Source of the DNA: an uncultured delta proteobacterium
GTDB lineage: Bacteria > Desulfobacterota > Binatia > UBA9968
Direction: 5' to 3'
Length of the DNA: 64,000 bases
NCBI GenBank assembly: GCA_963840855.1
Contig: CAWJBB010000046.1
Location: forward strand, 113,677 to 177,676
Below, one piece after another: positions 1 through 16,483 of this stretch; the stretch's first letter is position 1, and every line of letters starts with the position of its first letter. The notes under the pieces were generated by a model that saw nothing but the letters and a program-made list of their open reading frames with translations, was not told where the DNA came from and searched no databases. A program made the position numbers and the translations under genes.

Positions 1-507
1 ACCCTAGTAAAAATGTCAGGGGCTCTTATACGTCATAGAACCGTCAATAAGAAAGAGAGCACGGAATCAGACAAGCTGATTCCTGATTCTCTTTCCACCA
101 AATCGAAGAGAAAACTTACCCGGCCGGCGCCTGACGATCGGGTTAAACCGTTCTTGACTTGGTTCGCCGAAGAGTACGAGAGGCGCATCGGCGGACCGTA
201 CGCCCCCAAGTGGGGTAAGGATGGCAAGCTCATCAAAGAGCTTCCTCCGGCTTTCGACCTGCCGAGGCTTAAAGACCTGGCCGTTCGCTTCTTTGAGTCT
301 CCAGATCCATGGGTCCGGCAAAACGGCGGGTTCACCGTTGGCGTTTTCATTAGTCAGATAAACAAGATCAGTTCCACCGGACCCGGCAGCAACGGCCACA
401 CCAAGCCCACCGAAGTGAAAGACTTGGACAACGGCATGGTTGAGGTCGATGGGCGGTCTATGGATCGGCGGACATACGAAAGGCGATATGGAAGCACAAT
501 CAACTGA
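1..507 (+). CDS. Replication initiator protein, C-terminal part (5' end outside window)
   Basis: MSGALIRHRTVNK matches MSGALNHHRTVNK in the middle of initiator 10282-11061; precedes the DnaB-like gene as in element 2. Confidence 0.7.
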   Translation, partial: TLVKMSGALIRHRTVNKKESTESDKLIPDSLSTKSKRKLTRPAPDDRVKPFLTWFAEEYERRIGGPYAPKWGKDGKLIKELPPAFDLPRLKDLAVRFFESPDPWVRQNGGFTVGVFISQINKISSTGPGSNGHTKPTEVKDLDNGMVEVDGRSMDRRTYERRYGSTIN

Positions 508-1330
508 ATCGGCCAAGTTTGTTACCCAGGACGAAGCCCGTACCCGGTGGCTCAAATCTTTAGAGGCGCGCGACCATCGCCGCTATTTCAAATCAGGGTT
601 CAAGGCACACGAGCAATCTGTAGGTGCATTCCTGCGCGGCTCATTCAATCTTTTTGCTGCGCGTCCAGGCGTCGGGAAAACTGCTTTCTTGTTCGCCCTC
701 GCCTATCGCCAGGTGTTGGCCGGCGTAAGGGCTTATTTCTGCAATCTCGAAATGGGCGCCGAGCAAATGTGGAACCGGCTGGCATGTCTCCATGATGAGT
801 CTCTAACGCTGCGCGAATTGAACGAAGGCGAAATAACCGACAACCGCGTCCAATACTTGACGGCGCTATCCGAAAAGCTGGCGGGGTTCTCGCCGTTGTT
901 TTTCGAGAGCACCGAACTTAGGGCGCTGATTGCGGCGACCCAAGCGGAAATCAAGCCGTCGTCCGACTCGATCCTCTTTGTTGATTATATCGGCCTATTC
1001 ACTGACAAGCGTTTAGGCCCGCAAGAGCGTTATTGGCTAATATCCGAATGCGCGAAGGCTCTAAAACTTCTCGCCCGTCAATTGGACATTCCCATCATCG
1101 CGGCTGTGCAACTCAACCGGCAGCTAGAAAACCGCAAAGATAAGACACCGACGCTGGCAGACTTAAGAGATTCGGGCGAACTCGAAAACCACGCTGATTC
1201 AGTATTCGCATTGACCCGCGAGGATCGCGGCGTGTTGGAAATTGATTGCTTAAAAAATCGTCACGGTCCGCTTGCATCGTATTCCCTCCGATTCGACGGC
1301 CCGCGGGTGGCGCTGGAGGAATTTGATTGA
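488..1330 (+). CDS. DnaB-like replicative helicase (RecA-like C-terminal domain only)
   Basis: AARPGVGKT Walker A, NLEM, FVDYIGL, QLNR, DLRDSGELENHAD, KNRHG motifs. Confidence 0.9.
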   Translation: MEAQSTESAKFVTQDEARTRWLKSLEARDHRRYFKSGFKAHEQSVGAFLRGSFNLFAARPGVGKTAFLFALAYRQVLAGVRAYFCNLEMGAEQMWNRLACLHDESLTLRELNEGEITDNRVQYLTALSEKLAGFSPLFFESTELRALIAATQAEIKPSSDSILFVDYIGLFTDKRLGPQERYWLISECAKALKLLARQLDIPIIAAVQLNRQLENRKDKTPTLADLRDSGELENHADSVFALTREDRGVLEIDCLKNRHGPLASYSLRFDGPRVALEEFD

Positions 1331-2079
1331 TGCAATTCACCGCGCCTTACGCCCTAATCGGCGACAGTGCAAACCTTGCGTTGCATCTTCACCCGGATCA
1401 TCTGGCAGACTTGCGAGCGTCAGGCCTGCGCGATGAGACAATCCGCGCCGCCGGCGTCTATTCGCTCGCGCCACGATTCATTGAGCACTTTTTCGGGAGT
1501 GTACCAGCCGAGGTTCAAACCGCGCTTTGCTTTCCTTATCCGGGCGGCGACTTCGCTCGGATCAAGCTCTTTCCCGCGTTAGGTAAGATGAAATATTCCC
1601 AACCGCCCAAAACTGGCGCCCGGCTTTACCTCCCCTTCGAGGTGAAGGACGGCTCGTTGTACGTGTGTGAAGGCGAGAAAAAGACGTTGGCCGCACATCA
1701 GGCCAGCATGAACGCGGCCGGGATTGGTGGGCTTTGGAATTGGCTGACGAAAGGTGAGCCCATTGATGACCTAAAACTTATCGAGTGGGACGGCCGTGAC
1801 GTTATCATCATTCCAGATTCTGACGTGTTTCAACGCCAAGACTTACTTAGAGCGGTTTATGCCCTGGGCCGCGAGCTGAGAGGGCGCGGGGCGTCGGTCA
1901 GCGTCGCCGAGATCCCGCAACCGGGACAGGAGAAGATCGGACTTGATGACTACTTTGTGGCGGGCGGGCGCGTCGATGATCTGCAAACGTGCACTCTTGG
2001 CGGGCAAACCTTCCGGTCAGCGTCATTCTGGTATGGGCAATGGAAAATAAAAACGGCGACATTAGCGACAGCGGCGTGA
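1330..2079 (+). CDS. DUF3854-like TOPRIM primase domain protein
   Basis: KYSQP, VCEGEKK, GIGGLWNW, IIPDSD, GLDDY motifs. Confidence 0.8.
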   Translation: MQFTAPYALIGDSANLALHLHPDHLADLRASGLRDETIRAAGVYSLAPRFIEHFFGSVPAEVQTALCFPYPGGDFARIKLFPALGKMKYSQPPKTGARLYLPFEVKDGSLYVCEGEKKTLAAHQASMNAAGIGGLWNWLTKGEPIDDLKLIEWDGRDVIIIPDSDVFQRQDLLRAVYALGRELRGRGASVSVAEIPQPGQEKIGLDDYFVAGGRVDDLQTCTLGGQTFRSASFWYGQWKIKTATLATAA

Positions 2080-2123
2080 GGAGCAGGCGGCAACATAGGC
2101 GAGCGCAAGGAAGGGAAAAACCA

Positions 2124-2588
2124 ATGGAGGACGTGACTATGACTGACGCACAGGAGCTTTGGCTGATTGCCGAGAGGCGGAGAGCCTATGCTAAGAACGT
2201 GACGGCGCACGAGGTAGATTATAACGTTGACGATGATGGGCTTGCGCACATCGTGGAGGACTCGATCAGCGAGTTTATCAGGTGTTGGTATACGTTCTAC
2301 ATCGAAGGCCAGACTTGCCGCCGTGATGCCGCTGTACTCGATTGGGCACCAATACGAGCGATGACGGCGGCGCTTCTCATGAATCCAGAGCGTCTACGCC
2401 GGGTCATCGAAGAGTTTCAAAAGAGGCACAAGTACAGGGAGGACGAGCTGTTCGACCCGGTAGTGGCGTTGATCAGCGAGAAGCTACTGGACGCAGCAGG
2501 TGCGATAAACGATGGTAATGAATGGACGGTGCCGCAGGATGTCATGGAGAAGCTGCGAGAAAATGCGCACCCAACGGTGCGGCATTGA
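2124..2588 (+). CDS. Hypothetical protein
   Basis: Co-oriented ORF with purine-rich RBS; start could also be 2139. Confidence 0.55.
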   Translation: MEDVTMTDAQELWLIAERRRAYAKNVTAHEVDYNVDDDGLAHIVEDSISEFIRCWYTFYIEGQTCRRDAAVLDWAPIRAMTAALLMNPERLRRVIEEFQKRHKYREDELFDPVVALISEKLLDAAGAINDGNEWTVPQDVMEKLRENAHPTVRH

Positions 2589-2680
2589 AAGCGGCGAGGG
2601 ATGACTAGGCGGCGAATAGGCGGGCACTTTCTGAAGCCGATCCCGATTAAGCCTAACCAACGAAAAACCAACGAAAACCG

Positions 2681-2983
2681 ATGAAATTTCAGAGGGGCAA
2701 CAAACTAGCCGCAGGCGGCCGACGCGATCCGGCAGGCGGGCGGCCTACAAGGGCAGCTCTCGAAGCGCAGGAAGCTAGACTCGCCGTCTGGCAAAAGGAA
2801 TTGGAGAAAAACGAATTGATACTTGCGCGGCGCTACATCAAGCGAGCCATGAAATCAGACCGGGTTTTGATCGACGCTCGCAAGGCGACCGTACCGGATG
2901 CCAAGAAGGAGATCGAGCATTCCGGCGAGGTAGGCGTTCGGCCGTGGCTTGTCGATGCCTACGAGCCAAAGAAAAAGAAATGA
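2681..2983 (+). CDS. Terminase small subunit-like protein (DUF5681-like)
   Basis: FQRGNKLAAGG..GGRP N-terminus and KEIEHSG C-terminus are typical of TerS-like proteins; homolog at 7227. Confidence 0.6.
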   Translation: MKFQRGNKLAAGGRRDPAGGRPTRAALEAQEARLAVWQKELEKNELILARRYIKRAMKSDRVLIDARKATVPDAKKEIEHSGEVGVRPWLVDAYEPKKKK

Positions 2984-3176
2984 GGATGATTGCTCTTATT
3001 GGTCTGGGCCAGTTTTACGCGCCAAGCGCACAGATCGACTGCGACGCCGACCCGATAGCCCATGAGCGATAGATCGTCGTTTATGTACAGTGTGCACGCC
3101 GCAGAAATGCATCATTTGAAGGAATGCTTCGCAATCAAATCATCGACGCCATGAAGGGTGGGCATAAGCGACTTCT

Positions 3177-3530
3177 ATGATCGAGCAAACCCTAAACCCG
3201 TTTGACCCGTTCTTCGAGAAGATCCGGGAAATTGTCCGCGAGGAGTTAAAGGCGGCCGGGAACGGGAACGGACACGGGGGCAATATTACCGAGACAGACA
3301 AAAAGGAACTGCAACGCTTGAAGGCTTTGGCGGCTGGAAAGGCGGCAGTCCAGGCAGGCGCATTGCTTACCGCCGAGCAATTGGCCGCGATGTTACAGGT
3401 CGACAAAGCGACGGTGTACGAACGAGTGAAGAAAAAAGCTATCCCTTTCTATCAGGCCGGGCGCTTTGTGCGATTCAATCTCGATGAAGTTTTAGAGAGT
3501 CAACGAAATAAAAACGACAATCCTTCTTGA
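3177..3530 (+). CDS. Excisionase/AlpA-like HTH_17 protein
   Basis: LLTAEQLAAMLQVDKATVYERVKKKAIPFYQAGRFVRF. Confidence 0.8.
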   Translation: MIEQTLNPFDPFFEKIREIVREELKAAGNGNGHGGNITETDKKELQRLKALAAGKAAVQAGALLTAEQLAAMLQVDKATVYERVKKKAIPFYQAGRFVRFNLDEVLESQRNKNDNPS

Positions 3531-3556
3531 CGGACTGTAAGTATTATGCTTATAGT
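3527..3556 (+). promoter_or_regulatory. Putative sigma70 promoter for leaderless HTH-int transcript
   Basis: TTGACG-18bp-TATAGT, with GTG start at 3563. Confidence 0.5.
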
Positions 3557-3562
3557 GGGTTT

Positions 3563-3751
3563 GTGACTGGCAGGGACTTCAAGAAGATGCGGCTTGCGAA
3601 AGGCTACAGTCAATCACAGTTAGCGCGTGAACTGGACGTGCATGTGGTGACGGTTTCAAAGTGGGAGAGGGGAGTTGTACCGATCCCGCGCATGGCCGAG
3701 CTGGCGCTTTCGTCCTTAAAGCCCAGGTCAAAACCAAAGAAGGGGGTTTAG
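3563..3751 (+). CDS. Small XRE/Cro HTH regulator
   Basis: GYSQSQLARELDVHVVTVSKWERG. Confidence 0.85.
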   Translation: MTGRDFKKMRLAKGYSQSQLARELDVHVVTVSKWERGVVPIPRMAELALSSLKPRSKPKKGV

Positions 3752-3753
3752 CT

Positions 3754-4931
3754 ATGGCAGCAGTTTACAAAGTGGGCAAGAAGTGGCGCGCGGACTTTAC
3801 CGACAAGGAAGGCTTTCGCCACCGCCAGAGGTTCAAAACGAAGGGGGAGGCGGACGCCTATCTCACCGAGAAAAAGTCGGAGCTTAAAGACGGCACCTAT
3901 GTTTCACCCAAAGACATACCGACCTATGGTGCTCTAGCGGATTCGTGGATTGCGGGCAGGATCGAGCAGTCACGGACACCGGGGGCGGGCTATCGGCCGT
4001 CAACCCTGGCGCAGTGGCAAACCCATGTTGCGCACATGAAAGCGTGTTTTGGCGAAAACAAGAAAGTTAACGACATCGACGCGCAGGCAATTGAAAGGGC
4101 AATCGGCAAACTCCGGCTTGCGAAAGAGCAGGGCGGCCGCGGGCTATCGGTCAAGACCGTGGGCAAGGTGCTTACCACCATGAGCCGGATCTTCAAGTTT
4201 GGGATCCGCAATAAATGCGGTATCCAGACCGATCCGACAAAGCTTATCGAGAAGGTAAAGGACAGTTCTGGCGAGCAGACAGAAACGGGCGAGCGGCTGA
4301 ATGTCTTACATGAAGTCACGGAAAAGGAAGTGCTCACGCCCGAGGAAGCCAAGCGCGTGATCTTGGCGGCCAAGCCGGGGCTTTACAGGACTATCATTCA
4401 GACAGCGATCTACACCGGCGCAAGGATCAGCGAGCTCCTGGCGCTAAAATGGCCGGACGTGCACCTTGATGGCAGCGTTATCGACATTCGCCGAAGCGTA
4501 TCAACGGCAAAGGTGAAAGGGGAGATAACGCAAGAAAAGTACCGCTGGTTTGATCCCAAGACGAAGCGCGGGGTTAGAGAAATACCGATCCCCCCGCAGT
4601 TAGTCGCGGCGCTCAAGGAATGGAAAGAGAGGGGTCCGAAGAGCCGGCTTGATTTGGTATTCTGTAACGGGTTTGGCGAACCCTGCGAACGAACCGGAAT
4701 GGGGCGCTATGGGCTAAAGCCGGCGCTTAAGCAGGCGGGTATTGATAAGGCGGTTACGCCGCACGGACTGAGACACACCTATGCGTCAATGCTCATTCTG
4801 CTCAAGAGACCGATAACGGAAATCTCTCACTACCTGGGCCACGCGGATGTTTCAATCACGATGCGCATTTCTTGAAGCCGAAGAAACAGGACACGATGAG
4901 CGACTTGGAAAGGCTTATCGAGAATGGCTAG
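3754..4931 (+). pseudogene. Tyrosine integrase, frame broken at the C-terminal catalytic Tyr
   Basis: TGARISELLAL, HGLRHTYAS and LGHAD are present. ORF stops at 4875 (ITMRIS*), while AHFLKPKK..IENG* continues in another frame to 4931. Confidence 0.8.
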
Positions 4932-4941
4932 CCAAAAGTTC

Positions 4942-4971
4942 TTTGGCACAGTTAGGCACAGTTTGACACAG
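4942..4971 (+). repeat. Three 10-bp direct repeats TT(T/A)G(G/A)CACAG, putative arm-type sites of integrase 1
   Basis: TTTGGCACAG TTAGGCACAG TTTGACACAG between int end and tRNA. Confidence 0.6.
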
Positions 4972-5011
4972 AAGGGGAAAAATATAATTGTAAGTAGCTG
5001 ATATTGCTTAT

Positions 5012-5085
5012 GCCCCCGTAGCTCAGGTGGATAGAGCACAGGATTCCTAATCCTGGGGCCGCGTGTTCGAGTCACGCCGGGGGCA
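5012..5085 (+). tRNA. tRNA-Arg (anticodon CCT)
   Basis: Cloverleaf: GCCCCCG/CGGGGGC acceptor stem, GCTC/GAGC D-arm, CAGGA-TTCCTAA-TCCTG anticodon arm, GCGTG-TTCGAGT-CACGC T-arm; CCA not encoded. Confidence 0.95.
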
Positions 5086-5108
5086 TTTCTAAGTAATCAA
5101 ATCTCAAG

Positions 5109-5141
5109 GGGAAAGCTGGAAACAGCTTTCCCTTTTCTTTT
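5109..5141 (+). terminator. Rho-independent terminator after tRNA
   Basis: GGGAAAGCTG-GAAA-CAGCTTTCCC followed by TTTTCTTTT. Confidence 0.85.
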
Positions 5142-5156
5142 GTCCAAGCGTCCAAT

Positions 5157-5174
5157 GTCTCTAAAATGTCTCTA
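5157..5174 (+). repeat. GTCTCTA x2, putative arm-type sites of integrase 2 (left end)
   Basis: Same heptamer occurs x3 at the right end (16308-16335). Confidence 0.7.
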
Positions 5175-5323
5175 TGGCGGCGCCCGGGCGCCCTTAGGCG
5201 GCGGTTTTCGTCGTTTATGGTGCTCCGGTAGCTACGTGTGGCTAAAACTTTGAGCTTGTCTGAGATACTCGCCAAGGACAACGACACGCCGGCCAACCGC
5301 AATGGCGCCGCGGATGGTGGACA

Positions 5324-5563
5324 ATGACAAATATTGAATTCGCTCAAGCATGGACACGCAAGCTTGAAGCGTTGGGAATCGTCCTGAATAACGGCATCGT
5401 GCTGACCGGCCCGGCAAGGTTCGTCGAGCGCCCGCTTCATCCACACCCGAGCCGTGGAAGGAAGAAAATTCACGCTTCTGGCTACGCGAGACTCAAAGCA
5501 CACCGGTGGAGAAAGTCAGGCATCCGGATAAAGGTCACGGATGATAACGAAATAGGTTTGTAA
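5324..5563 (+). CDS. Hypothetical protein
   Basis: 79-aa ORF only. Confidence 0.35.
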   Translation: MTNIEFAQAWTRKLEALGIVLNNGIVLTGPARFVERPLHPHPSRGRKKIHASGYARLKAHRWRKSGIRIKVTDDNEIGL

Positions 5564-6027
5564 CTACCGAGATTGAAAGGAGAAAAAAGGGCCATTTTTC
5601 GCGTATGGCTATAACACCATTAACCGGGGATTTTCGTTATCATTGAGGGCTCAACTGGCCACCATAGCTTAGTAGGACACAAATGGGCTTCTCCCGGAAG
5701 CATCAAAATTGCGGCGATGAATATCAGACCGGTAAAGGTACCAGGCCATGAGCCTTTCGAAACGATCAGGGAAAAAATCCAGAATTGACGGCATTTAGGG
5801 AAAGATCGCCGAAGCGCCGTCCAGGTTTCATTTCGTTTATTTCCCTCTTGCCCTTCAAAGCTGTCAATCGAATGTCACCCATTGTCAAGACAAGCACGGC
5901 CGTTTAAAATGATTATTTCGGAACCATGACCCAAGCAGATGCAAAAGAGGCACTAGAGAGATTTAACCGGGTACAGGGGGCATGAGCAGGAAGAAAATAG
6001 GTCCGAAATGGAGGAGAAAGGAATCTA

Positions 6028-7089
6028 ATGAAGATATTCTTGGGTTTGGGTTTGGCGGCGGCGGTATTCCTAGCGAGCAGCGCCGGGGCAGCAGAGATTC
6101 CTCACAAGTTCAGGATTTTGGATATTAAGATACCGGGGCAGGCTTGGCCCCGCGCAGCCCTGGTAGATATTAACAAGTGGGGCAAAGTGCTTGCCCACAC
6201 GCCAATGTTAAACGGCGACACGGTGAGCATTTTGAGCGACGGCAAGACATCACACAAGCCTTTCGGCTGTAAGAAAGAAGCGGGCGAGACTCTAAGTTAT
6301 ACCTACGCAACAGCTTTGAATGATAAGAACTATTCGGTAGGTAATTGTTATCTCTGGAATCCTACAACGGAAAGCTATCGGACGATTGCATTTCTGGCGA
6401 CTCCGACAGGCCGGATAGTGGATCTGACGAGTCTCAATGTCGCGTACCAAGCTTTTAGCTTTTTACAACCACAAGGCATGAGTCCCGGCAGCCAATACAT
6501 TACGGGGAATTTTTATAACGGCGTGGACTCATTTCCACATTGCTTCTTGATCGACAGAGTTGCGGGATCTTTTACCGACATCGCTTTTCCATCTCCGATA
6601 CCGACGGCAGACGTGAATAGCAACTGCGTTGGCGTCAATAAATTCGGACAGGTTCTTGGGGAATATGTCGCTAATGACCTAGCGACAAACGAGAGCTTGG
6701 AACACGGCTTTTTCCTATGGGACAAAGGCGTTTTTTCAATTCCATTGCCCTTGAGCCACGATATTGATGGCGGGCCATACACTATCGCTTATGACATAGA
6801 AGGGGATACTGACGCCCTTCTAGGACTTTACAATGGCAACGACGGCACAGGGTATGCGGTTTTCTTCTTCGATGACGGGGTTAGCTACGGCATCGCCGAG
6901 CCCGCTAATTGGGCCGTAAATGATCTTGGCGGCATGAGCACTCGGGGAACATTCGTCGGCAATGTCACAATTTTCAAAGGGCTAGATAAATTTTGTATGG
7001 AAGTTGTTGGCGACCCGGATTATTGCGCCATTGAAGAAAGCCACGGGTTTGTCGCCACGCCGGCGCCTATCAAGGTCGCTTCAAAGTGA
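6028..7089 (+). CDS. Secreted HAF-like repeat (probable beta-propeller) protein
   Basis: Signal peptide; repeats such as ATALNDKNYSVG, GVNKFGQVLG, HGF; strong RBS. Confidence 0.7.
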   Translation: MKIFLGLGLAAAVFLASSAGAAEIPHKFRILDIKIPGQAWPRAALVDINKWGKVLAHTPMLNGDTVSILSDGKTSHKPFGCKKEAGETLSYTYATALNDKNYSVGNCYLWNPTTESYRTIAFLATPTGRIVDLTSLNVAYQAFSFLQPQGMSPGSQYITGNFYNGVDSFPHCFLIDRVAGSFTDIAFPSPIPTADVNSNCVGVNKFGQVLGEYVANDLATNESLEHGFFLWDKGVFSIPLPLSHDIDGGPYTIAYDIEGDTDALLGLYNGNDGTGYAVFFFDDGVSYGIAEPANWAVNDLGGMSTRGTFVGNVTIFKGLDKFCMEVVGDPDYCAIEESHGFVATPAPIKVASK

Positions 7090-7226
7090 AGCTGCGAGGC
7101 CAGTTCGAGACAATAGGTGAAAACGCAATCGAGTTTTTCAACAGGGTTTCAAGGAGTGGCTAATCGTGAGTAAAATCGTTCATATAAGGCGTAAAGCTTG
7201 GAACCCGCAAAACCAAAGGAGAACCT

Positions 7227-7604
7227 ATGGCAGACGGACCGGGCGGTAGATTCACGAAGGGTCATAAACTTGCCAAAGGCGGGCTAAGGGATCCGCCTGG
7301 AGGCAGGCCAACCAAGGCGGAAGTGGCGCGCCGAGAATCGCTCAAGGAGGTTCTAGAACGTCTACGCGAGGAAGAGGCGAACACGTTAGCGGCCAGATAC
7401 TACGAGATGGCCAAAGATGATCCGGCGACCATGCGGCACGCGGTTGACAAGGTTTTGCCCAACGCAAAGCAAGAGATAGGCGTTACCGGCGATGTCAACG
7501 TGGGCCTCAACCGCGAATCGATCATCGCCTTGATGGCGACCAAGGAAGGGCGCGAGGCTGCATTGGCTATCACTAAGGCGCTGGCGGGGCAATCTAAGCC
7601 GTAA
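7227..7604 (+). CDS. Terminase small subunit-like protein
   Basis: GRFTKGHKLAKGG..GGRPT and KQEIGVTG; homologous to 2681-2983. Confidence 0.6.
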   Translation: MADGPGGRFTKGHKLAKGGLRDPPGGRPTKAEVARRESLKEVLERLREEEANTLAARYYEMAKDDPATMRHAVDKVLPNAKQEIGVTGDVNVGLNRESIIALMATKEGREAALAITKALAGQSKP

Positions 7605-7931: not shown

Positions 7932-7995
7932 GCCATACTCTCTTCAAAACATCTATTATTTGGACGCCCATTTTGTCCATGCTCTAAGCGCCTCT

Positions 7996-8860: not shown

Positions 8861-8954
8861 GGGGTCTAGGCTGATCACCGAAACGGCCCGGAGATTCTCA
8901 CACGCCGGGCCTGGCCTCTTTCTCTGCCAAAGGTGTGAGAGAAACAGTGTGAGA
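8861..8954 (+). ncRNA. Putative C4/CI-like antisense regulatory RNA and its target sites
   Basis: Hairpin GGCCCGG/CCGGGCC whose loop contains TCTCACAC, complementary to GTGTGAGA x2 (8933-8940, 8947-8954) at the RBS of ORF 8957. Confidence 0.55.
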
Positions 8955-8956
8955 GG

Positions 8957-9220
8957 ATGTCAAAACCTCCAAGCAAAGCGACCAAGCGTCGCACTCGAAA
9001 ACCGCTCGATGCAAGCGAGTTCTCAGACCGCCAACTATTGATCCATTGGGGCCGTGTTCTACAGAGCCAGCAACTGTGGCTCGCGCAAATTATTCAAAGC
9101 CTCGGCGCACCGCTACTGCCAGGTATACCCGAACGGCTCCGCCAGAACCTGTCTCGTGAACACTTGAGAGCTTGGCTGAATGATGGGGTTTCCGCTGAAC
9201 TTAATCAGTGGGCTGCTTAA
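8957..9220 (+). CDS. Hypothetical protein, first gene of the replication operon
   Basis: GAGG RBS; co-oriented with downstream genes. Confidence 0.5.
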   Translation: MSKPPSKATKRRTRKPLDASEFSDRQLLIHWGRVLQSQQLWLAQIIQSLGAPLLPGIPERLRQNLSREHLRAWLNDGVSAELNQWAA

Positions 9221-9971
9221 GGCATCTAACGAAGAAAGTTCAGTCAGGAAAGAGATAGCGGGAAGGCTGACAGGTGCGGTCGTGTCCAGATTGATCGATG
9301 TCCGCGGCGAGAAGGTCGGAAGGAGCGATAGCTTGCCGGATAACCTAAGAGAGATACGGCGGGCCTTCATGGTAGACAGGATTAAGGCAAAGCAATCCAT
9401 ACCTGATGATGAGGATGCCAGGAGCGATGTGTTTCTCGACGCCTGGACTGAGCTTAATCGACAGGCTGAGTCGATAATAAAAACTTCATGGCCCTTGCCG
9501 ACAGCAGAAAGCGCCTTTGAAGCTGACTTATATGAGCGATGGCAAACAGACGTGCTATCGGCCTTGAAAAACCGCTGGATTGCTTTCCTTCCAATCTTGG
9601 TGGAACGAGAAGCGGTAAACTACATGCCAGCAAGAATCAAGATGGATCAAATCGACAGGGCACGGTCTAAGGCAGCAAAGAAACGGAAAGGCATCGAAGT
9701 CGAGTATGATGAGACATTACACGAGGAGCCTTTGATGCCTGCCGGCGATAATTCAGAAGAAACCAAGCTCTTAGAATCAGAAGGTGTACGAAAACGGCTA
9801 AAAAAACTGGATGAGGCGGCAGATAGATATGCCCCAGAAACGGGCCGAGCTATTCGATTGATTTTAAGAGAAGGTTATAGCCAAAAAAGAGCAGCCGAAG
9901 CTGAAGGCATCCCAGAATCTACCTTGAGTGAGAGGATCATAAGAGAAGAAATCGAAAAAAGTGACCTCTAA
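9180..9971 (+). CDS. Protein with C-terminal sigma70 region-4-like HTH (putative activator)
   Basis: EGYSQKRAAEAEGIPESTLSER; start uncertain. Confidence 0.55.
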   Translation: MMGFPLNLISGLLKASNEESSVRKEIAGRLTGAVVSRLIDVRGEKVGRSDSLPDNLREIRRAFMVDRIKAKQSIPDDEDARSDVFLDAWTELNRQAESIIKTSWPLPTAESAFEADLYERWQTDVLSALKNRWIAFLPILVEREAVNYMPARIKMDQIDRARSKAAKKRKGIEVEYDETLHEEPLMPAGDNSEETKLLESEGVRKRLKKLDEAADRYAPETGRAIRLILREGYSQKRAAEAEGIPESTLSERIIREEIEKSDL

Positions 9972-10084
9972 CCCGTCCCATCAATCTTTTTCTCTGCCTA
10001 TAAATCCTTCTTAAATCAATCGGTTATCCTAGCACCGGATTTCCCCTTCTGTTTTTCGAGTATCTATATCAGGAGGAGAAATTC

Positions 10085-10285
10085 ATGCTTGTCATTGAAA
10101 TCGACCCGGCCGGAGGACAAATCGCTCAAGTGTTCGTGCGAGCGGCCAGCGTTGAAGCCGAGGATGCCGCGCTTCGCGCTTGGCAGAGCGTTAGGCCACT
10201 CGTCGACGCCATCGACCTTAAGTTGAGGCAAGACAACTCGCCGCGAACTATTACGGCTTCCCGGCCACTGGAGGCCGGGTTGTGA
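10085..10285 (+). CDS. Hypothetical protein
   Basis: AGGAGG RBS; 4-nt overlap with the rep gene. Confidence 0.6.
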   Translation: MLVIEIDPAGGQIAQVFVRAASVEAEDAALRAWQSVRPLVDAIDLKLRQDNSPRTITASRPLEAGL

Positions 10286-11061
10286 GCGTAAAAATCATGG
10301 CTAAAGTCTGGGCAAGTTCACACCGCAAGGACGGCGAGCTTCTTGTCATGCTTGCCCTGGCGGACTTTTCAAACGATGCCGGCGAGAGCTGGCCGTCAAT
10401 CCCGACGCTCGCGCAGAAGGCTCGACTAACTGAGCGGCAAACACGACGCGTCTTAAGGAAACTCGAAGAAGCTGGAGAGATCCGCCGAGTAAAGAGCAAC
10501 GGCGGCCGGAATCGGCGGAATCACTACTTCATTACCCTCACTGAAAACCCTGATAATATTACAGGGAAAGAATTACAGGGTAAAAATAACCCTGTTATTG
10601 GCGACACTAAACCCCTGACGCCCATGTCAGGGGCATTAAACCATCATAGAACCGTCAATAAGAGCGGCGCTAAAGCGCCTTGTGATTCTTCTCCATCCCG
10701 AAGGGAAAGAAAGAATACCCGCGGCGCCAGCATCCCGCCCGAGCTTCAAGCCGCCGTTTCCCGCATCGTCGCCAAAATCAACGAACTGGGTGGCACTCGC
10801 TACCATGACGACAGCCCGGACGCTCTCCACAATTTGATTGCCCGTTTGCGCGATGGCCGGACCGAGGCCGAGTGCCTGGCCGTGGTAGAAGGCCGCCACG
10901 CGGCATGGGCGGACAAAAAAGAGATGCAAGAGTATTTCCGCCCGAGCACGCTATTTGCCGCGGTGCACTTCGAGGATTATTTGCAGGCCGCGCAGAGACA
11001 GAGCAACGGCGCCGCCGAATCCAACCCCGAACGGCGAAAGGAACTTTTTATCAATGCCTGA
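10282..11061 (+). CDS. Phage-type replication initiator (N-terminal wHTH, conserved phage C-terminal domain)
   Basis: LVMLALADFSND-GESWPSIPTLAQKARLTER (HTH_36-like); YFRPSTLF motif. Confidence 0.85.
   Translation: MSVKIMAKVWASSHRKDGELLVMLALADFSNDAGESWPSIPTLAQKARLTERQTRRVLRKLEEAGEIRRVKSNGGRNRRNHYFITLTENPDNITGKELQGKNNPVIGDTKPLTPMSGALNHHRTVNKSGAKAPCDSSPSRRERKNTRGASIPPELQAAVSRIVAKINELGGTRYHDDSPDALHNLIARLRDGRTEAECLAVVEGRHAAWADKKEMQEYFRPSTLFAAVHFEDYLQAAQRQSNGAAESNPERRKELFINA
10548..10633. repeat. Iteron-like CCCTG/CAGGG array (putative origin inside the rep gene)
   Basis: Six CCCTG/CAGGG half-sites with mostly AT-rich spacers; a related site lies at 1-23 in element 1. Confidence 0.6.
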
Positions 11062-11926
11062 GAAGACTGCCCTGGAATACGTGGCGATGGCCGATGCCGT
11101 GCGCGATTTCGCCAAAGGCATGGACGCGCAGACCGAAGACGACTTTTTCCCTACCGGGTTTCGGTCGCATGATTTAGCCCTCGGGCGGCTGCGCCGCGGA
11201 TCCCTGACTTTTGTTGGCGCCAGGACATCGATGGGGAAAACCGCCCTCATGCTCAATATGGCGCTGGCGCAGATGAAAGCGGGCGTACAAGTCTATTTCT
11301 TCACGCTCGAGATGCCGCGAAACGATATGATTGCCCGCCTTGTGAGTATCGCAACCGGCATTCCCCTTTTGGATATCCTGCAAAATCGTGTTGACGAGAA
11401 ACAGGTACGCGAGATCGGCGGCGCCCTACCGATTCTATCGCCGCTTCCTGGGAATTGGACCGAAGAGGGAAACCTAAAACGAATCGGCGAACTGTTCAGC
11501 CGGATTGAACCGAAGAGCAGAAGCATCGTTTACGTCGACTTCCTGGGGCTTGTGCAAGTATCGGGACTAGACGCAACGCAGCAATACGCTGTGACGACCG
11601 AAGCCGGGTTATCGCTGAAGCGCGCCGCGATGGGGCTTCAGATTCCCGTGGTGGCCGGGGTGCAATTGAATCGCCAAGTCGAAGCCCGAAAAGAAAAGCA
11701 TCCGCTTTTGTCAGACTTCAGGGATAGCGGCCGGCTCGAAGAGATTGGCGATGTCTGCCTTGGGCTCTATCGCCCGGGCTTTTATGACAAGAACGCAGAC
11801 ACGGAGCTTCAGGTTTTTTGCCTGAAGAACCGTAACGGCCCGCGCGTCAACTATGTTTTGGAATGGTACGGACCATGCGCCAGGGCGACAGAGAAGCACA
11901 AACTGTCATGGCCGGAGGTTGCGTAG
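11054..11926 (+). CDS. DnaB-like helicase (C-terminal domain only)
   Basis: GARTSMGKT, TLEM, YVDFLGL, QLNR, DFRDSGRLEE, KNRNG. Confidence 0.9.
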   Translation: MPEKTALEYVAMADAVRDFAKGMDAQTEDDFFPTGFRSHDLALGRLRRGSLTFVGARTSMGKTALMLNMALAQMKAGVQVYFFTLEMPRNDMIARLVSIATGIPLLDILQNRVDEKQVREIGGALPILSPLPGNWTEEGNLKRIGELFSRIEPKSRSIVYVDFLGLVQVSGLDATQQYAVTTEAGLSLKRAAMGLQIPVVAGVQLNRQVEARKEKHPLLSDFRDSGRLEEIGDVCLGLYRPGFYDKNADTELQVFCLKNRNGPRVNYVLEWYGPCARATEKHKLSWPEVA

Positions 11927-11930
11927 GTCG

Positions 11931-12683
11931 ATGCAATTCCAGGCGCCATACTCTCTTGTGCCTTTCGGTGAGCTTGCCTTACGCTTTCATCCGGACCACC
12001 TAGCCGACTTGCGGGCGTCGGGCTTGAGCGATGACACGATCCGGGCGGCCGGCGTGTATTCGATTCGCCCGCGCGACATCGCATTGTTTTTCAATTTGCG
12101 CCGCGGTGTCCCCTCTGAGATTGAAAGCGCTCTTTGTTTTCCGTACCAGGGCAGCGACTTCGCCCGACTGAAACTTTTTCCGCCAGTCGGAAAAATGAAA
12201 TACTCGCAACCGCCAAAGACCGGCGCGCGTTTATACATGCCGTTTAAAATCGGCGACGGTCCCCTCTACGTTTGCGAAGGCGAGAAAAAAACCCTCGCGG
12301 CGTATCAGGCTGGGCTCAACGCAGGTGGCATCGGCGGCGTCTGGAATTGGCTAAGCGCCGGGCAACCTATCGACGATTTACGGTTGATTGACTGGGACGG
12401 GCGCGAAGTAACGCTGATTCCTGATTCCGATGTATTCAACCGCCCGGACTTGCTTCGCGCCGTCTACGCCTTAGGGCGCGAGCTGCAATCCCAAAGCGCC
12501 CGCGTTTATGTTGCGCAGATCCCACAAACCGGCTCGGCAAAAGTCGGGTTTGATGACTACTTAGTTTCGGGCGGCAAGGTTAATACCCTTGAAGTCTTTT
12601 CCTTGAGCCACAGCATTTTCAGGCGGCTTAGTTTTTGGCACAGCGAATGGAAATTCAAGAGAGCGCTAAGAGAGGCGGCATGA
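11931..12683 (+). CDS. DUF3854-like TOPRIM primase domain protein
   Basis: Close paralog of 1330-2079 (HPDHLADLRASGL, KYSQPPKTGARLY, CEGEKK). Confidence 0.8.
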   Translation: MQFQAPYSLVPFGELALRFHPDHLADLRASGLSDDTIRAAGVYSIRPRDIALFFNLRRGVPSEIESALCFPYQGSDFARLKLFPPVGKMKYSQPPKTGARLYMPFKIGDGPLYVCEGEKKTLAAYQAGLNAGGIGGVWNWLSAGQPIDDLRLIDWDGREVTLIPDSDVFNRPDLLRAVYALGRELQSQSARVYVAQIPQTGSAKVGFDDYLVSGGKVNTLEVFSLSHSIFRRLSFWHSEWKFKRALREAA

Positions 12684-12804
12684 TGGCGGCGGGGAATCGT
12701 AGAGACACCATAGAGACACAGGTCAAAAAGGCCAATGAAAACGCGGGCACAAAGCAGGGCGCAATATAAGCAATCCTGGGGCATTCGACGCGGGCGGGCG
12801 TGAA

Positions 12805-13095
12805 ATGAGCGAGCAAGCTAACAATAGAATGCTTGTGACGTTGACGGTTGACGAACTGCGCGAGGTTATCCGGGCGGAAGTAGCGGCATCGAAAACAGCC
12901 GTTAAGCTACTTTATACGACCGATGAAGCCGCCGAGCTTTGCAACGTCAAGCCGTCATGGTTGGCATGGGCCGCTAGAAACGGAAAGGTAAACTGCCGGC
13001 GCCTGGGACATAACGTGAGATTCGCCATTGTAGACTTAGAAGAGCTAATCGAGCAATCAAGGGCCGCGGGTGAAGAGGCGGAAAGAAAGTGCTAG
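12805..13095 (+). CDS. Excisionase-like HTH_17 protein
   Basis: LLYTTDEAAELCNVKPSWL..RRLGHNVRF. Confidence 0.8.
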   Translation: MSEQANNRMLVTLTVDELREVIRAEVAASKTAVKLLYTTDEAAELCNVKPSWLAWAARNGKVNCRRLGHNVRFAIVDLEELIEQSRAAGEEAERKC

Positions 13096-13416
13096 CACTC
13101 AAGGCCGCCAGAGCAGGTGGTCTTTCCTTGACAACCCCGTAGCAGTTGAGGTAAGCGAGGGCATTATTATAATGCCGACCGATTCTGGTTAGGCAATATC
13201 TGTGATCCAGTTTCTTTGAGCCCGACCGGCTTCGTGCTAGTCGGGCTTTGTATTTAAGAGGGGATGCCCATGTTTGCCAGAGGCCCTCCGTTTATATAGA
13301 GAAAAGATTTTTTATCGTCGGCATCTCTAAGAAGAGTCGGTGGGAGTACGATTCATTTACTTCTTTGCGCGAGCGGCTCAGTATGAGGCGCACCCACCAT
13401 AACGCTTTAAAGGAGG

Positions 13417-14304
13417 ATGCTCATGGAGACTATAGAAAGTTTGCGTGACCGCTTAGAGGTATTAGAAAATCAGACCCATGCCCTTGCAGACCAGACACGT
13501 GCTGCTGAACGACGACTGCATTGTTGGCGACGGATTGCATATGGCTTGCTGATAGTGGGGCTGGTGAGCTTGCCACTGGCGTCGGGCATCACGGCGCAAG
13601 ACGAATCGTCCGAGTATAGGGGGATGAGGAAACGCCTCGCCGCCCTTGAGTACAAGCTCCAGTATATCAGTGGCGGTCCCAATGAGGTTGTCATCACTGG
13701 AGCGAACCTGCGGATCGTGAATGGCCTCGGCGCCACGCAAACCACCAACGGCTTGGGCAACCTGATCGTGGGCTATAACGAGCCGCGTCGAGTAGGGTTT
13801 CCGACCGTGCGCACGGGCTCGCACAATGTTGTGGTAGGAGAAGCGCACAACTTCTCCCGCTTCGGAGGGATGGTGGTCGGGTTTCAGAATGAGATTAGCG
13901 GCGACTTCTCGTCCGTGAGTGGGGGGCTGGAGAACACGGCCAGTGGTGACTGGTCGTCGGTTAGCGGGGGACCTCACAACAGCGCCATCGGAACCTATTC
14001 GTCTGTCAGCGGAGGGCACGATAACACCGCTAGCGGCCCCGGCGCCTCCGTGACTGGGGGGAGGAACAATACCGCCAGTGGCATTGAGGCCGTGGTTAGT
14101 GGGGGCCCTTTCAATACGGCCAGTGGCCACTGGTCGTCGGTTAGCGGGGGGCAGCAGAACACGGCTAGAGGAGAACGGTCCTCCATCAGCGGCGGGGAAG
14201 GCAACGAGGCGAGCGGGTTCGTCTCCTCGGTCAGCGGCGGACTCCAAAGGACCGCTCCCGGGACAAACAACTGGGCGGCTGGCCCCCTCTTCGCCGCGCA
14301 GTAA
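13417..14304 (+). CDS. Membrane-anchored/secreted SVSGG-repeat (beta-helical) protein
   Basis: About nine 14-aa SVSGGxxNxASG repeats, NGLGNLIVGYNE motif, N-terminal coiled coil plus hydrophobic helix. Confidence 0.8.
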   Translation: MLMETIESLRDRLEVLENQTHALADQTRAAERRLHCWRRIAYGLLIVGLVSLPLASGITAQDESSEYRGMRKRLAALEYKLQYISGGPNEVVITGANLRIVNGLGATQTTNGLGNLIVGYNEPRRVGFPTVRTGSHNVVVGEAHNFSRFGGMVVGFQNEISGDFSSVSGGLENTASGDWSSVSGGPHNSAIGTYSSVSGGHDNTASGPGASVTGGRNNTASGIEAVVSGGPFNTASGHWSSVSGGQQNTARGERSSISGGEGNEASGFVSSVSGGLQRTAPGTNNWAAGPLFAAQ

Positions 14305-14554
14305 GGAGTTGGCGCACAAGTGAATGGCCACAAGAACTGGGCCGAATATCACGAGGGAGGGGTCGAGCGTCAAGCGGCTCCTCCTTTGCGACTGCAAACA
14401 ACACGGAGCGTAAGCTTCTTTTCCCAGTGGCGGGACAAACTGTGTTGACGCACAGCCCGCCCGTTTTTATTTCAGTCTAAGTAAACGGATTCGTTCCTGC
14501 CTCACAAAATTTGAGCCCGCCGGTTCCTAACCTGAATCGGCCTGTTGGTATTTC

Positions 14555-14880
14555 AATGAGGCTGCCGAGCTTTGCCGCGTTAATCCATCACTCCATTACT
14601 CCAACTGACATCCTTCATCGCAGTCCTTCGAGGTGGGTTTTGAAGTCCAGCGGATTTCACCAGGTTTTCTAGTGTCCCTAACTTTGAACGTTGAACCGAA
14701 CTTTCGCCACTCGAAGTCTTGCTTCAGGGCGCCGATTCAGGTTCAAGCAACGGGGAAAGTGAAGTCATCATGGTTGGCATGGGCGGCGCGCAGCGGAAAA
14801 GTGAACTGCCGGCGCCTTGGGCATAACGTAAGGTTCACCCTCGAAGATTTGGAAGCACTAATCGAGCAGTCGAAAACCAC
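14555..14880 (+). pseudogene. Split second copy of the excisionase
   Basis: NEAAELCRVNPS (14555-14590) and VKSSWLAWAARSGKVNCRRLGHNVRF (from 14759), separated by a 168-bp insert containing a stop codon. Confidence 0.7.
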
Positions 14881-14906
14881 CGGCGACAATAAGAGAGAGA
14901 TAGCGA

Positions 14907-14935
14907 TTGACATTCCACTCTTAAAATTATACGGT
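14907..14935 (+). promoter_or_regulatory. Putative sigma70 promoter for leaderless HTH-int transcript
   Basis: TTGACA-17bp-TACGGT, with ATG at 14943. Confidence 0.5.
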
Positions 14936-14942
14936 GAGGATA

Positions 14943-15128
14943 ATGATAGGCAAGCAGCTACGGGATGCAAGGCGCTATCTGAACCTTACACAAGGTGAGC
15001 TAGGCCGCCAATTGGGCATCCACTTAAATACGATTGCGCGCATGGAGCGCGACGAGTTAGCAATAGCGAAAGTCGTCGAGCTTGCCGTCAAATTCCTAAC
15101 GTCCAAAAAACAAAGGGGGACACGCTAA
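14943..15128 (+). CDS. Small XRE/Cro HTH regulator
   Basis: LTQGELGRQLGIHLNTIARMER; homolog of 3563-3751. Confidence 0.85.
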   Translation: MIGKQLRDARRYLNLTQGELGRQLGIHLNTIARMERDELAIAKVVELAVKFLTSKKQRGTR

Positions 15129-16306
15129 TGGCAATCAATCAAACAGCGGCGGGGAAATGGGTTGTTGACTGGTGGTTTTTCAAGGATGGCAAGCGAAAGC
15201 GCAAAGAGAAAACCTTCGGCAAGAAAAAAGATGCGACGGCGTTTTATGAATCGACGCGGAGCAAGGTTAGAGACAACGAATACACGCCACCGTCGAAGCA
15301 TACGGTTAAGGAAATGGCGGAATTGTACCTAGCAGCGACGAAGGCGAAAACCAAAATTCAAACACACGCGCAGTATAAGCGGCATATCGACGGCTACATC
15401 GTGCCGGCATTCGGCGAGCGGCGCATGACCGAGCTAGGCTTTGAAGAAATAGAAGAGGCGGGGCGCAAATGGGCCAAAGAGAAGAAAATCAATCCGGTAT
15501 CCGTCAATAAGATTTTCCGCACCCTGGGCGCCGTCTATAGCTACGCCAAGAAACACGGCGTCAACTACAATCCCATGACGAGAGTGGACCGCCAGCGTGA
15601 TAACAAAACCCTTGAGGCGATAGAGGCCGAAGCGATCCGGGGCTTGACGCAGGTTGACGACGACGGGGCCGGCGACGGGCACCTACGCGCCGTGGGGCCG
15701 CACGAAGTCTACAGCGCAGAAGAGGTAAAGAAACTAATCGACGCGAGCGCGCCGGGCCTTGAGCGGGCGCTGCACATGACCGCGGTTATGACCGGCATGA
15801 GACACGGTGAGATAAACGGACTGCAATGGGATAGGGTAGATTTCGAGAAGTCGCGGATTTTTGTTTCACGCAGTTTGACCGAGCTTAAAGGCGGGGCGAT
15901 CATCGAGCGGCCAAAGAGCCGGGCGGCATATCGTTATTTGCCCATGACACCCATGCTAGTTTCAGAGTTGAAGCGGTGGAAGTTGCAAAGCCCGGTAAAC
16001 GAGCTTGACTTGGTTTTCGCCGATCCGTTAGGCAGGGCATTGAACCGCAAGGCGAACAATCGGCGCCTGAAGCAGGCGGCCACGCGGGCGAAGGTCAAGG
16101 CGTTGTCGATGCACAATCTGAGGCACACATACGCGAGTCAGCACTTGATGGCGGGAACGGCGCCAGCCGAGATTTCGCAGCTAATGGGCCATGCCGATGT
16201 CGCGATAACTTTGAAGGTTTATTCACACTGGACGCAAAGAGACTATGCAGGCTCCGCGGCGGCGCTAGAATCGCGCTACTTCGCAAGCGCAACGGCGGGC
16301 GAATGA
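15128..16306 (+). CDS. Tyrosine integrase (intact)
   Basis: TGMRHGE, HNLRHTYAS, MGHADVAITLKVYSH. Confidence 0.95.
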   Translation: MAINQTAAGKWVVDWWFFKDGKRKRKEKTFGKKKDATAFYESTRSKVRDNEYTPPSKHTVKEMAELYLAATKAKTKIQTHAQYKRHIDGYIVPAFGERRMTELGFEEIEEAGRKWAKEKKINPVSVNKIFRTLGAVYSYAKKHGVNYNPMTRVDRQRDNKTLEAIEAEAIRGLTQVDDDGAGDGHLRAVGPHEVYSAEEVKKLIDASAPGLERALHMTAVMTGMRHGEINGLQWDRVDFEKSRIFVSRSLTELKGGAIIERPKSRAAYRYLPMTPMLVSELKRWKLQSPVNELDLVFADPLGRALNRKANNRRLKQAATRAKVKALSMHNLRHTYASQHLMAGTAPAEISQLMGHADVAITLKVYSHWTQRDYAGSAAALESRYFASATAGE

Positions 16307-16307
16307 A

Positions 16308-16335
16308 GTCTCTAAAAGTCTCTACGAGGTCTCTA
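16308..16335 (+). repeat. GTCTCTA x3, putative arm-type sites (right end)
   Basis: Helically phased (10-11 bp) repeats directly after the int stop codon. Confidence 0.7.
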
Positions 16336-16440
16336 TAACCTGCGCAAATGTGGGGTAAGGTAGGATAAAAGAAAAGTGCAAACCCTTGATTTTTCAACAC
16401 TGGAAACGTACAGAAAAGACTGGATAATCGCTCCCGCACA

Positions 16441-16483
16441 ATTCCTAATCCTGGGGCCGTGAGTTCGAATCTCGCCGGGGGCA
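16441..16483 (+). repeat. att site: displaced 3' half of tRNA-Arg
   Basis: ATTCCTAATCCTGGGGCC-GTGAG-TTCGAAT-CTCGC-CGGGGGCA. Confidence 0.9.

Follow-up and report, generated by a model that had tools for sequence, protein, structure and literature searches.

Closest described systems

Phage satellites of the phage-inducible chromosomal island (PICI) and Staphylococcus aureus pathogenicity island (SaPI) type are, according to PMC10085698, small elements with a site-specific integrase, an AlpA/Xis-type helix-turn-helix (HTH) protein and a replication module of their own; they encode a small terminase subunit (TerS) without the large subunit (TerL), have no tail or lysis genes and occur in multiple and tandem copies per genome. 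The same traits, with TerS as a candidate, recur in two adjacent elements, E1 and E2, that lie to the left and to the right of a tRNA-Arg(CCT) gene in the 64,000-nt stretch of DNA analysed here (the window, G000:C46:113677-177676). It belongs to the 7.1-Mb genome (93 contigs, 94% complete, 8% contamination) of an uncultured soil or groundwater bacterium, whose lineage is outside the Proteobacteria and Firmicutes to which the same source assigns >99.9% of PICIs. E1 and E2 are well supported as mobile, self-replicating elements that integrate at tRNA genes. That they represent a PICI-like satellite lineage derived from temperate phages has, in our judgement, an even chance of being correct.

The replication module sets the pair apart. 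PICIs have a Pri-Rep protein, whereas E1 and E2 encode an initiator (Rep), a short DnaB-type helicase and a solo DUF3854/TOPRIM protein (Pri), a non-homologous three-protein analogue of the primase-replicase that is one of five core components of PICIs in PMC10085698. Of the other features given there, the integrase and the regulator (a homologue of alpA, merR or stl by that definition) are present, the latter as an AlpA-type protein (HTH_17, phrog_66; judged without the SatelliteFinder profiles), and genes for tail, holin, portal and head-tail connector are absent from E1 right part and E2, whose open reading frames (ORFs) were scanned against Pfam and PHROGs at E<=0.01. Capsid-morphogenesis genes are recognised in neither, and the TerS candidate lies outside the terminase families, two differences from the PICI model; many accepted PICIs (Type B) also lack a capsid-morphogenesis gene (PMC10085698, same passages). 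With P4-like satellites the elements share only the AlpA-type HTH and a non-homologous primase and helicase, and the psu-delta-sid operon, epsilon and alpha have no PHROG match in the same ORFs. Integrative conjugative or mobilizable elements would carry a relaxase, for which there is no Pfam match in E1, in E2 or among the 25 most frequent of 57 families of their relatives, although an oriT may be present, and a tailed prophage would carry TerL, portal, major capsid or tail genes, none matched in E1 right part and E2.

Tycheposons of Prochlorococcus, as presented in the portion of bioRxiv 10.1101/2020.12.28.424599 consulted, resemble E1 and E2 by their tyrosine recombinase at tRNA genes, partial-tRNA flanks and tandem arrays, and by an optional primase/DnaB-type helicase module, xis and variable cargo; a subset is PICI-like with terS. 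They differ in hosts and habitats and in the orientation of int, which here stands at the end with the replication module beside it, transcribed outward toward the attachment (att) site, and that preprint states their integrase lineage to be specific to tycheposons. The third related system is the CyRepA-type Rep of cyanobacterial plasmids, a fusion of DUF3854 to a helicase (PMC10079941, in part). DUF3854/TOPRIM and helicase serve autonomous replication in CyRepA as they would here, and distant relatives of Pri are fusions of like layout (485-1002 aa). E1 and E2 differ by having a separate ~250-aa TOPRIM protein, a separate DnaB_C protein and an O-like initiator, and by being integrated, not plasmids. 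The papers found on DUF3854, judged by titles and by passages of one of them, do not deal with satellites. This family did not appear either in the literature on phage satellites with primase, DnaB, integrase and tRNA, as far as its accessible text goes; the SatelliteFinder and tycheposon supplements might hold overlapping profiles.

Two elements sharing one tRNA gene

Coordinates below are those of the window, on the + strand unless noted. The tRNA-Arg(CCT) gene, predicted by ARAGORN at 5011..5086, is the only tRNA gene of the window and the shared integration target. E1 is bounded by a perfect 42-nt direct repeat of the tRNA 5' half, with its right copy at 5009..5050 and its left copy at G000:C46:99372-99413 (E 9e-17 in a blastn search of the tRNA region against the whole 7.1-Mb genome); the genome has no further copy of the core. 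As this left copy sits 14.3 kb upstream of the window start, E1 is ~19.3 kb long and extends 14.3 kb beyond the window; it is truncated by the window but whole in the genome. Chance origin of the 42-nt repeat was considered and rejected in view of the perfect match, its E value and the matching arm repeats on both sides. E2 is complete, as the earlier note had proposed, and is bounded by a 46-nt direct repeat of the tRNA 3' half (repeat family D3, 89% identical), with attL at 5043..5088 and attR at 16441..16486. The latter is the displaced native tRNA-Arg 3' half, as judged from the repeat and from the native site of a related genome (L128), where the right-flank gene is the same and has an intact tRNA-Arg(CCT) ~50 nt upstream, which confirms the native site.

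The repeats of E1 and E2 overlap only in ATTCCTAA, the anticodon loop, which is the crossover site of both elements. The order along the chromosome is native 5' half, core, E1, the 5'-half copy of E1, core, the 3'-half copy of E2 with a terminator-like hairpin (5106..5135, just after the tRNA and inside E2; a 13-bp stem followed by a T run), E2, core and native 3' half. With the 5' half supplied by the E1 attP and the 3' half by the E2 attP, element DNA appears to make up the working tRNA-Arg(CCT): E1 contributes its 5' half and whatever drives the gene, E2 its 3' half and terminator. The native halves now lie 14 kb further left and 11 kb further right. All 5/46 differences between the 3' half brought by E2 and the native one fall in the T arm, whose stem on visual inspection still pairs; this suggests that the E2 att site evolved in another host.

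An integrase in each element, co-oriented displaced tDNA fragments (5' for E1, 3' for E2) and an intact tDNA are the features by which Islander recognises islands (PMC4383910), and all are present. Islands with a 5' tDNA fragment are known and uncommon, 159/3919 in Table 1 of that paper, the part used here. E1 is alike in duplicating the tRNA 5' half and restoring the gene from its own end, with a crossover centred on the anticodon loop; unlike the 5'-type islands described there, a 5'-type and a 3'-type island of one family flank the same tRNA.

Both elements have candidate integrase arm sites. The window contains 12 copies of the heptamer GTCTCTA where 2.57 are expected (0/100 shuffles reach 12), eight of them in E2: two after attL (P' arm, 5157..5174), three before attR (P arm, 16308..16335), two upstream of the xis-like gene (12700..12717, - strand, between Pri and that gene) and one inside int. 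E1 has instead direct repeats of GGCACAGTTA in its P arm (4945..4971, 2.7 copies by Tandem Repeats Finder) and a GGCAC repeat pair ~100 nt inside its left end; a search around E1 with the looser motif GGCACAG showed no enrichment. The arm repeats of both elements are spaced ~10-11 nt, about one helical turn, on both arms.

An empty site spanning both flanks was not recovered from relatives, in which the E1 left flank is a multi-copy gene that is non-syntenic with the right flank. Three further sites (L125:120-215, L129:1400-1470 and L127:950-1010), in one same-genus relative and two other genera, carry, ahead of the right-flank gene, a tRNA-Arg 3' half or its decayed form and no 5' half. The tRNA-Arg site looks like a recurrent integration hotspot in the host family.

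A shared core with a three-protein replication module

E1 genes left of the tRNA form a co-oriented block. Rep of E1 has only its C-terminal part in the window (1..507); the gene starts 389 nt upstream, and the full 298-aa ORF matches HTH_36 (2.6e-07). It is followed by the DnaB-type helicase without N-terminal domain (440..1330; DnaB_C 2.3e-45 over residues 51-287; phrog_19, phrog_243) and by Pri, the stand-alone putative primase (1327..2079; DUF3854 3.6e-09). In E2 the module consists of a lambda O-like Rep (10282..11061; HTH_36 4.6e-11, Phg_2220_C 2.9e-15, phrog_428 3.9e-30, phrog_391 'O-like' 7.4e-22), the shortened helicase (10955..11926; DnaB_C 8.6e-45) and Pri (11853..12683, likely start 11931; DUF3854 9.6e-10). 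The CEGEKK and IPDSD motifs are kept in the Pri alignment (A1), and neither helicase matches the DnaB N-terminal family.

Toward the integration site E1 encodes a HTH_17 excisionase/AlpA-like protein (3177..3530; HTH_17 1.6e-10; phrog_66 'excisionase and transcriptional regulator' 5.6e-07), a XRE-type HTH (3527..3751; HTH_3 2.2e-10) and a tyrosine integrase (Int, 3661..4875; Phage_integrase 5.8e-23) with 57% identity to the integrase of L035. The E2 counterparts are a HTH_17 excisionase-like protein (12805..13095; HTH_17 9e-09, phrog_1840 3.4e-06), a XRE-like small protein (14934..15128) recognised by BLASTP only, with 34% identity to the E1 XRE and 48% to L033:13172-13384, and a tyrosine integrase (15128..16306; Phage_integrase 3.5e-24, Phage_int_SAM_3). 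Each element also has a TerS-like ORF of the family named A2: 100 aa and DUF5681-like in E1 (2681..2983), 125 aa in E2 (7227..7604), where the assignment draws on the position of its relatives upstream of TerL.

Pfam, PHROGs and BLASTP thus confirm the gene set that the earlier note had read as common to both elements: Rep, DnaB_C, DUF3854, TerS-like, HTH_17, XRE and Int. The contrast it drew between very similar primases and divergent integrases and initiator C-termini is also borne out by BLASTP between the elements. Pri proteins are 65% identical, Rep proteins 59% over the first 153 aa only, their C-termini failing to align, the A2 ORFs, differently placed in each element, 39% (E 6.7e-13), the helicases 35%, and Int 29%.

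Recurrence of the family

Species-representative genomes, searched by pattern with both Pri proteins, yielded 13 loci; the closest pair, at 71% and 66% identity, comes from metagenome-assembled genomes (MAGs) titled 'Candidatus Binatia bacterium' and 'Deltaproteobacteria bacterium'. A Pri match is present in seven of 60 relatives of the window genome, and three of these hold five close copies, 66-75% identical, in loci ordered Rep, DnaB, Pri, HTH_17, small ORF and Int, then tRNA-Ser(CGA)/(GGA) where the contig reaches. A metagenome scan returned 80 loci, 34 of them with Pri >=62% identical, taken as the close-family subset. In these a complete Pri is always solo and ~250 aa long, and a ~280-aa DnaB is encoded directly upstream in 30/34, the other four having <=251 nt of upstream sequence. 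The Rep-DnaB-DUF3854 block, expected to recur beside tRNA genes, does so, at five types (Arg-CCT, Arg-TCG, Ser-CGA, Ser-GGA and Met-CAT), and the relatives were found outside complete prophages, where they would mainly have lain if these were prophage genes. L037, of 9.9 kb, is a complete member, delimited by a perfect 25-nt repeat at 2643-2667 and, on the 3' end of tRNA-Met, at 12560-12584. Sizes in the family thus run from about 10 to 19 kb.

Pri is well conserved, and two types of DnaB and several of Int and Rep are combined with it in varying ways. In DnaB and Pri pairs with >=75% amino-acid identity, dN/dS (Nei-Gojobori) is 0.05-0.35 in 29 pairs, <=0.204 in 28 of them, and saturated in one further pair; the replication genes are therefore maintained by purifying selection. 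The MAGs in which distant Pri relatives (30-48% identity) occur bear titles of several bacterial phyla and, in two cases, of archaea. Many of these relatives are N-terminal domains of fused 485-1002-aa proteins and some are short solo proteins of ~200-250 aa. By this comparison the solo primase is a lineage-specific split of the fused primase-helicase common in distant relatives. The claim of a lineage with a three-part replisome accordingly holds for a recurrent compact family and falls short of a wholly new replisome.

A2 as a candidate small terminase

Database homologues of the A2 family (alignment A2) number 22, are unnamed and lack Pfam domains, and a tblastn search of A2 against 50,697 phage records gave no match. 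In the Atlas the family comes nearest to clusters of small viral hypothetical proteins and to one of DUF5681, a lead only; the literature match for DUF5681 is a phage virion proteome. Close A2 members retrieved four loci from IMG/VR, and in 4/4 of them the A2-like ORF is directly upstream of a 471-481-aa ORF, abutting or overlapping its start. The four ~475-aa ORFs form two pairs, ~85% identical within a pair. Pfam and a PDB profile search missed them as TerL; tblastn to annotated phage genomes matched those of L118 and L120. Over 90% of its length the L118 ORF shares 43.8% identity with annotated large terminases (2e-105, 816 phage records matched), and a P22-type portal gene lies downstream of it (1.5e-84); that of L120 is 26-27% identical to annotated large terminases (E ~1e-18 to 6e-21). 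L120 has the order primase-helicase (Toprim and DnaB_C), A2-like, TerL, which is mirrored by Pri then A2 in the elements. In L118 and L121, ~170 nt are read in two frames, as part of the A2-like ORF and of TerL.

L053, whose Pri is 80% identical to that of E1, has an intact A2 gene with a TerL N-terminal stub (L053:6852-6992) over its 3' end in the other frame. The stub encodes 53 aa with 53% identity, has lost the RRSGKDKT (Walker A) stretch and ends in a stop; it has the look of a remnant TerS-TerL junction. A2 is seen in five elements, E1, E2, L053, L060 and a truncated element on contig C50 that has it twice, both copies intact with dN/dS of 0.30 over 78 codons. Instead of A2, a P27-type TerS candidate is present in L037 and in a unit upstream of the family element of L033 (phrog_1496 9.1e-08 and 1.5e-05); that of L037 also approaches Terminase_4 (6.2e-05, 23.8 bits against a 24.7-bit cut-off). 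All three complete elements (E1, E2, L037) thus carry a TerS candidate with no TerL matched, and the other loci have neither A2 nor a P27-type candidate in the assembled stretch. A complex prediction of the L121 TerL with its A2-like neighbour scored 0.20 against a mark of 0.32. The terminase link makes A2 a candidate by gene position, not by a terminase model. A complete lack of terminase links in the TerS-like ORFs would have spoken against the earlier note; they have no direct terminase-family match, but 4/4 relatives on viral contigs stand directly before TerL, and the note is not refuted on this count.

Virion, transfer and helper genes

The absence of capsid, portal, TerL, tail and conjugation genes claimed for the 11.4-kb E2 holds for its scanned ORFs. 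E1 right part and E2 together have no match to capsid, portal, TerL, tail, lysis, relaxase or type IV secretion system (T4SS) families. The scan of E1 left part covered the ten larger ORFs with Pfam only, several smaller ORFs in the leftmost 5.5 kb being outside it, and found no relaxase, coupling protein or T4SS. For the relatives, 129 non-core ORFs of >=80 aa were selected from 39 family loci and 111 were passed to Pfam and PHROGs, 18 having been dropped by hand, mostly short antisense ORFs over core genes. The 25 most frequent of 57 Pfam families comprise HTH_17, integrase, Y2 transposase and single host-type families, with no virion, relaxase or transfer family among them; the PHROG top 25 include two 'terminase small subunit' matches and single 'head maturation protease' matches, which may be host proteases beyond the element ends. 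Elsewhere in the window genome a lone HK97-type major capsid gene (G000:C41:227178-227981, Phage_capsid 6.4e-36, 432-aa ORF) could be a prophage remnant, an encapsulin-like shell or part of a divergent phage.

Nature of the elements

We favour a satellite reading because a TerS candidate without TerL, the absence of virion and transfer genes, the small size, the phage-derived module order and the L053 stub come together. Int and Xis would excise the element, Rep would open the origin and load the short DnaB, and the TOPRIM protein would prime synthesis, so that the element would be amplified as a circle. A2 would then act as a small terminase that marks element DNA for the large terminase and capsids of a helper phage, in the manner of PICIs and SaPIs. 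Such elements would probably originate from temperate phages that lost TerL and morphogenesis genes. We give a probability of roughly 0.45 to the complete proposal, an undescribed satellite family of Binatia-like soil and groundwater bacteria that descended from temperate phages, lost TerL and the morphogenesis genes, kept a split replisome, swapped unrelated TerS types (DUF5681-like and P27-like) and occupied both sides of one tRNA. The satellite inferred in the earlier note is supported in part, by the positional TerS candidate and the missing virion genes; no helper phage, no sign of packaging or excision and no capsid-redirecting gene were found.

Several observations weigh against this proposal. 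A2 of E1 and E2 has no Pfam or PHROG terminase match, 1/24 family members touches DUF5681 (at 0.0018), and the A2 profile hits nothing below E 0.57 among PDB sequences. The AlphaFold2 model of A2 is poor (pLDDT 64.8, pTM 0.26) and Foldseek finds no significant fold match in BFVD (best E 1.9). By hhalign, A2 is unrelated to the P27-type protein of L037 (probability 0.1%) and to ORFs upstream of TerL in two GenBank phages (0.1-0.2%). Similarity of the E1 and E2 A2 proteins to the phage forms is confined to the N-terminal two thirds, the C-termini being different, and since the adjacent TerLs fall in two pairs of ~85% identity, the A2-TerL cases are effectively two. In PICIs, going by the part of PMC10085698 consulted, Int is divergent at the left end, whereas here it is co-oriented at the 3' end, and no capsid-morphogenesis or capsid-size gene is recognised in E1 right part and E2. 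The window genome, 94% complete, has no match to Terminase_6N, TerL_ATPase, TerL_nuclease or Phage_portal; a query with the L118 TerL found none of its type there or in 81 family genomes, and no helper phage was identified in the same set. The close family was not found in IMG/VR, where the sole match is one 38% fused relative, and Pri or DnaB ORFs are split in 3/34 metagenome loci (L060, L064, L066).

Without the terminase the same gene sets could be cargo-carrying integrative replicative islands, tycheposon-like or integrated plasmids, that move by vesicles, transformation, generalised transduction or mobilisation by a conjugative element, with A2 as a regulator that binds DNA or as a mere leftover. 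The regions upstream of Rep, variable and unshared among elements, fit cargo islands, as does the cargo itself (a histidine kinase and a NosD-like protein in E1, secreted and beta-roll proteins in E2), and both count against satellites. This view draws further on the lack of any helper trace, on the presence of A2 in only five elements and of P27-type candidates in two loci, on the DUF3854 N-terminal domain of a proven cyanobacterial plasmid Rep (PMC10079941, in part) and on the modular logic shared with tycheposons, that is integrase, xis, primase/helicase, cargo and tandem arrays at tRNAs (bioRxiv 10.1101/2020.12.28.424599, in part). It sits poorly with one backbone having acquired two unrelated TerS-type genes, with a TerS candidate in all three complete elements, with A2 kept intact and even duplicated at dN/dS 0.30 in the truncated C50 copy, and with the lack of relaxase, coupling protein and T4SS matches. 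We hold it to be the main rival, a serious one though less likely than the satellite reading. Immobile remnants of temperate prophages, decayed by loss of their late genes, would account for the dead TerL stub of L053, the TerL close to the fused DUF3854-helicase of the distant relative L008, the primase-helicase, A2, TerL order of L120, the truncated copy and further Pri fragment on C50 and the degenerate xis-like duplicate of E2.

Decay is nonetheless improbable: the same compact layout, its ORFs intact, is found beside five types of tRNA gene and in 34 metagenome loci, DnaB and Pri are under purifying selection, and the att and arm repeats are intact; the E2 3' half, with 5/46 differences and a T stem that pairs, points to arrival from another host and not to decay in place. 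Least probable of all, at a very low level, are small temperate viruses of an unknown non-tailed kind with their structural proteins among the unmatched ORFs. A size of 10-11 kb fits small membrane-containing phages, and most accessory ORFs match nothing, including, by Pfam, 9/9 of those tested from L034, L035 and L033 and several of E1 and E2. A virion module should be conserved, however, and no accessory gene set is common across the elements; no packaging ATPase or jelly-roll-like family was matched in E1 right part, in E2 or among the 25 most frequent families of the relatives, and the TerS-type genes point to tailed-phage packaging.

If the satellite proposal is true, swapping of TerS types would let members parasitise different helpers, and attP sites with opposite tRNA halves would let them flank one tRNA, the working tRNA being entirely satellite DNA. 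Known satellites are nearly all from Proteobacteria and Firmicutes in the consulted passages of PMC10085698, and the family would extend their map to an uncultured soil and groundwater lineage. The distinct replication module and the two interchangeable TerS types would offer a natural series for the origin of satellites from phages, with the L053 stub as a direct trace of the phage-to-satellite step, and a function would be suggested for the DUF5681-like small proteins encoded before TerL in several uncultured phages. The pair rebuilding one tRNA from both sides illustrates how a hotspot can grow into islands. Should the elements not be satellites, they would be well-delimited tycheposon-like replicative cargo islands outside the ocean.

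Accessory genes of E1 and E2

Between Pri and A2, E1 has a conserved ORF (1989..2588, likely start 2124) with homologues after Pri in L052 and L067; it has no Pfam or PHROG match, and the Atlas gives no usable match for 2124-2588. By Pfam, the left part of E1 encodes a MASE1-GAF hybrid histidine kinase and a NosD-like protein, and 7/10 scanned ORFs are blank. E2 carries as cargo a 353-aa protein (6028..7089) whose hydrophobic N-terminus is read from its sequence; it has a 35% identical paralogue on contig C35 and no Pfam or PHROG match. Directly upstream of Rep is a 263-aa protein with a C-terminal HTH (9180..9971; HTH_psq 1.4e-4), an architecture shared by L037:7030-8094 with HTH_28 at 7e-4. 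A second cargo gene, for a 295-aa beta-roll repeat protein (13417..14304; LbR_Ice_bind 1.6e-08; 45-nt tandem repeat at 13909-14162), lies between two HTH_17 copies, of which the second is degenerate (14633..14998; phrog_1840 9.8e-05). A 131-nt repeat, 76% identical, at 12943-13073 and 14756-14886 corresponds to this HTH_17 duplication and suggests that the segment 12805-14998 was duplicated internally or that two elements recombined there. The XRE proteins of E1 and E2 were also compared directly by BLASTP and align at the 34% given above.

Further copies and neighbouring units

The truncated third element of the window genome (G000:C50:109685-113220) comprises a Pri C-terminal fragment, two A2 genes, HTH_17, XRE, Int and tRNA-Ser(CGA); its Int is 46% identical to the L032 integrase, and Rep, DnaB and most of Pri are missing. 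A second Pri fragment on C50 (59677-59970) has an internal TGA, and the segment C50:55473-59970 includes, ~4 kb from that fragment, beta-roll repeats like those of the E2 295-aa protein.

Upstream of the family element of L033, the segment L033:1-7099 (= L006) is a second integrase-bearing unit with its P27-type TerS candidate at 596-955, ORFs of 253 and 578 aa, the latter also without Pfam match, XRE and a 321-aa integrase-like gene, and may be another tandem arrangement. Among distant fused-type relatives, L008 (6308-10752, from a MAG titled Nitrospiria) encodes a 666-aa fused DUF3854 protein ~1.2 kb upstream of TerL, which places fused DUF3854 in a phage-like context. This TerL is 43% identical to that of L118, and a HTH-type TerS-like reading frame lies between the fused protein and TerL. 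A search for circular contigs among the relatives found terminal repeats only in L108, likewise of the distant fused type: this 5045-nt metagenome contig encodes a 1002-aa fused DUF3854 protein and has a 127-nt terminal direct repeat, which suggests a small circular replicon.

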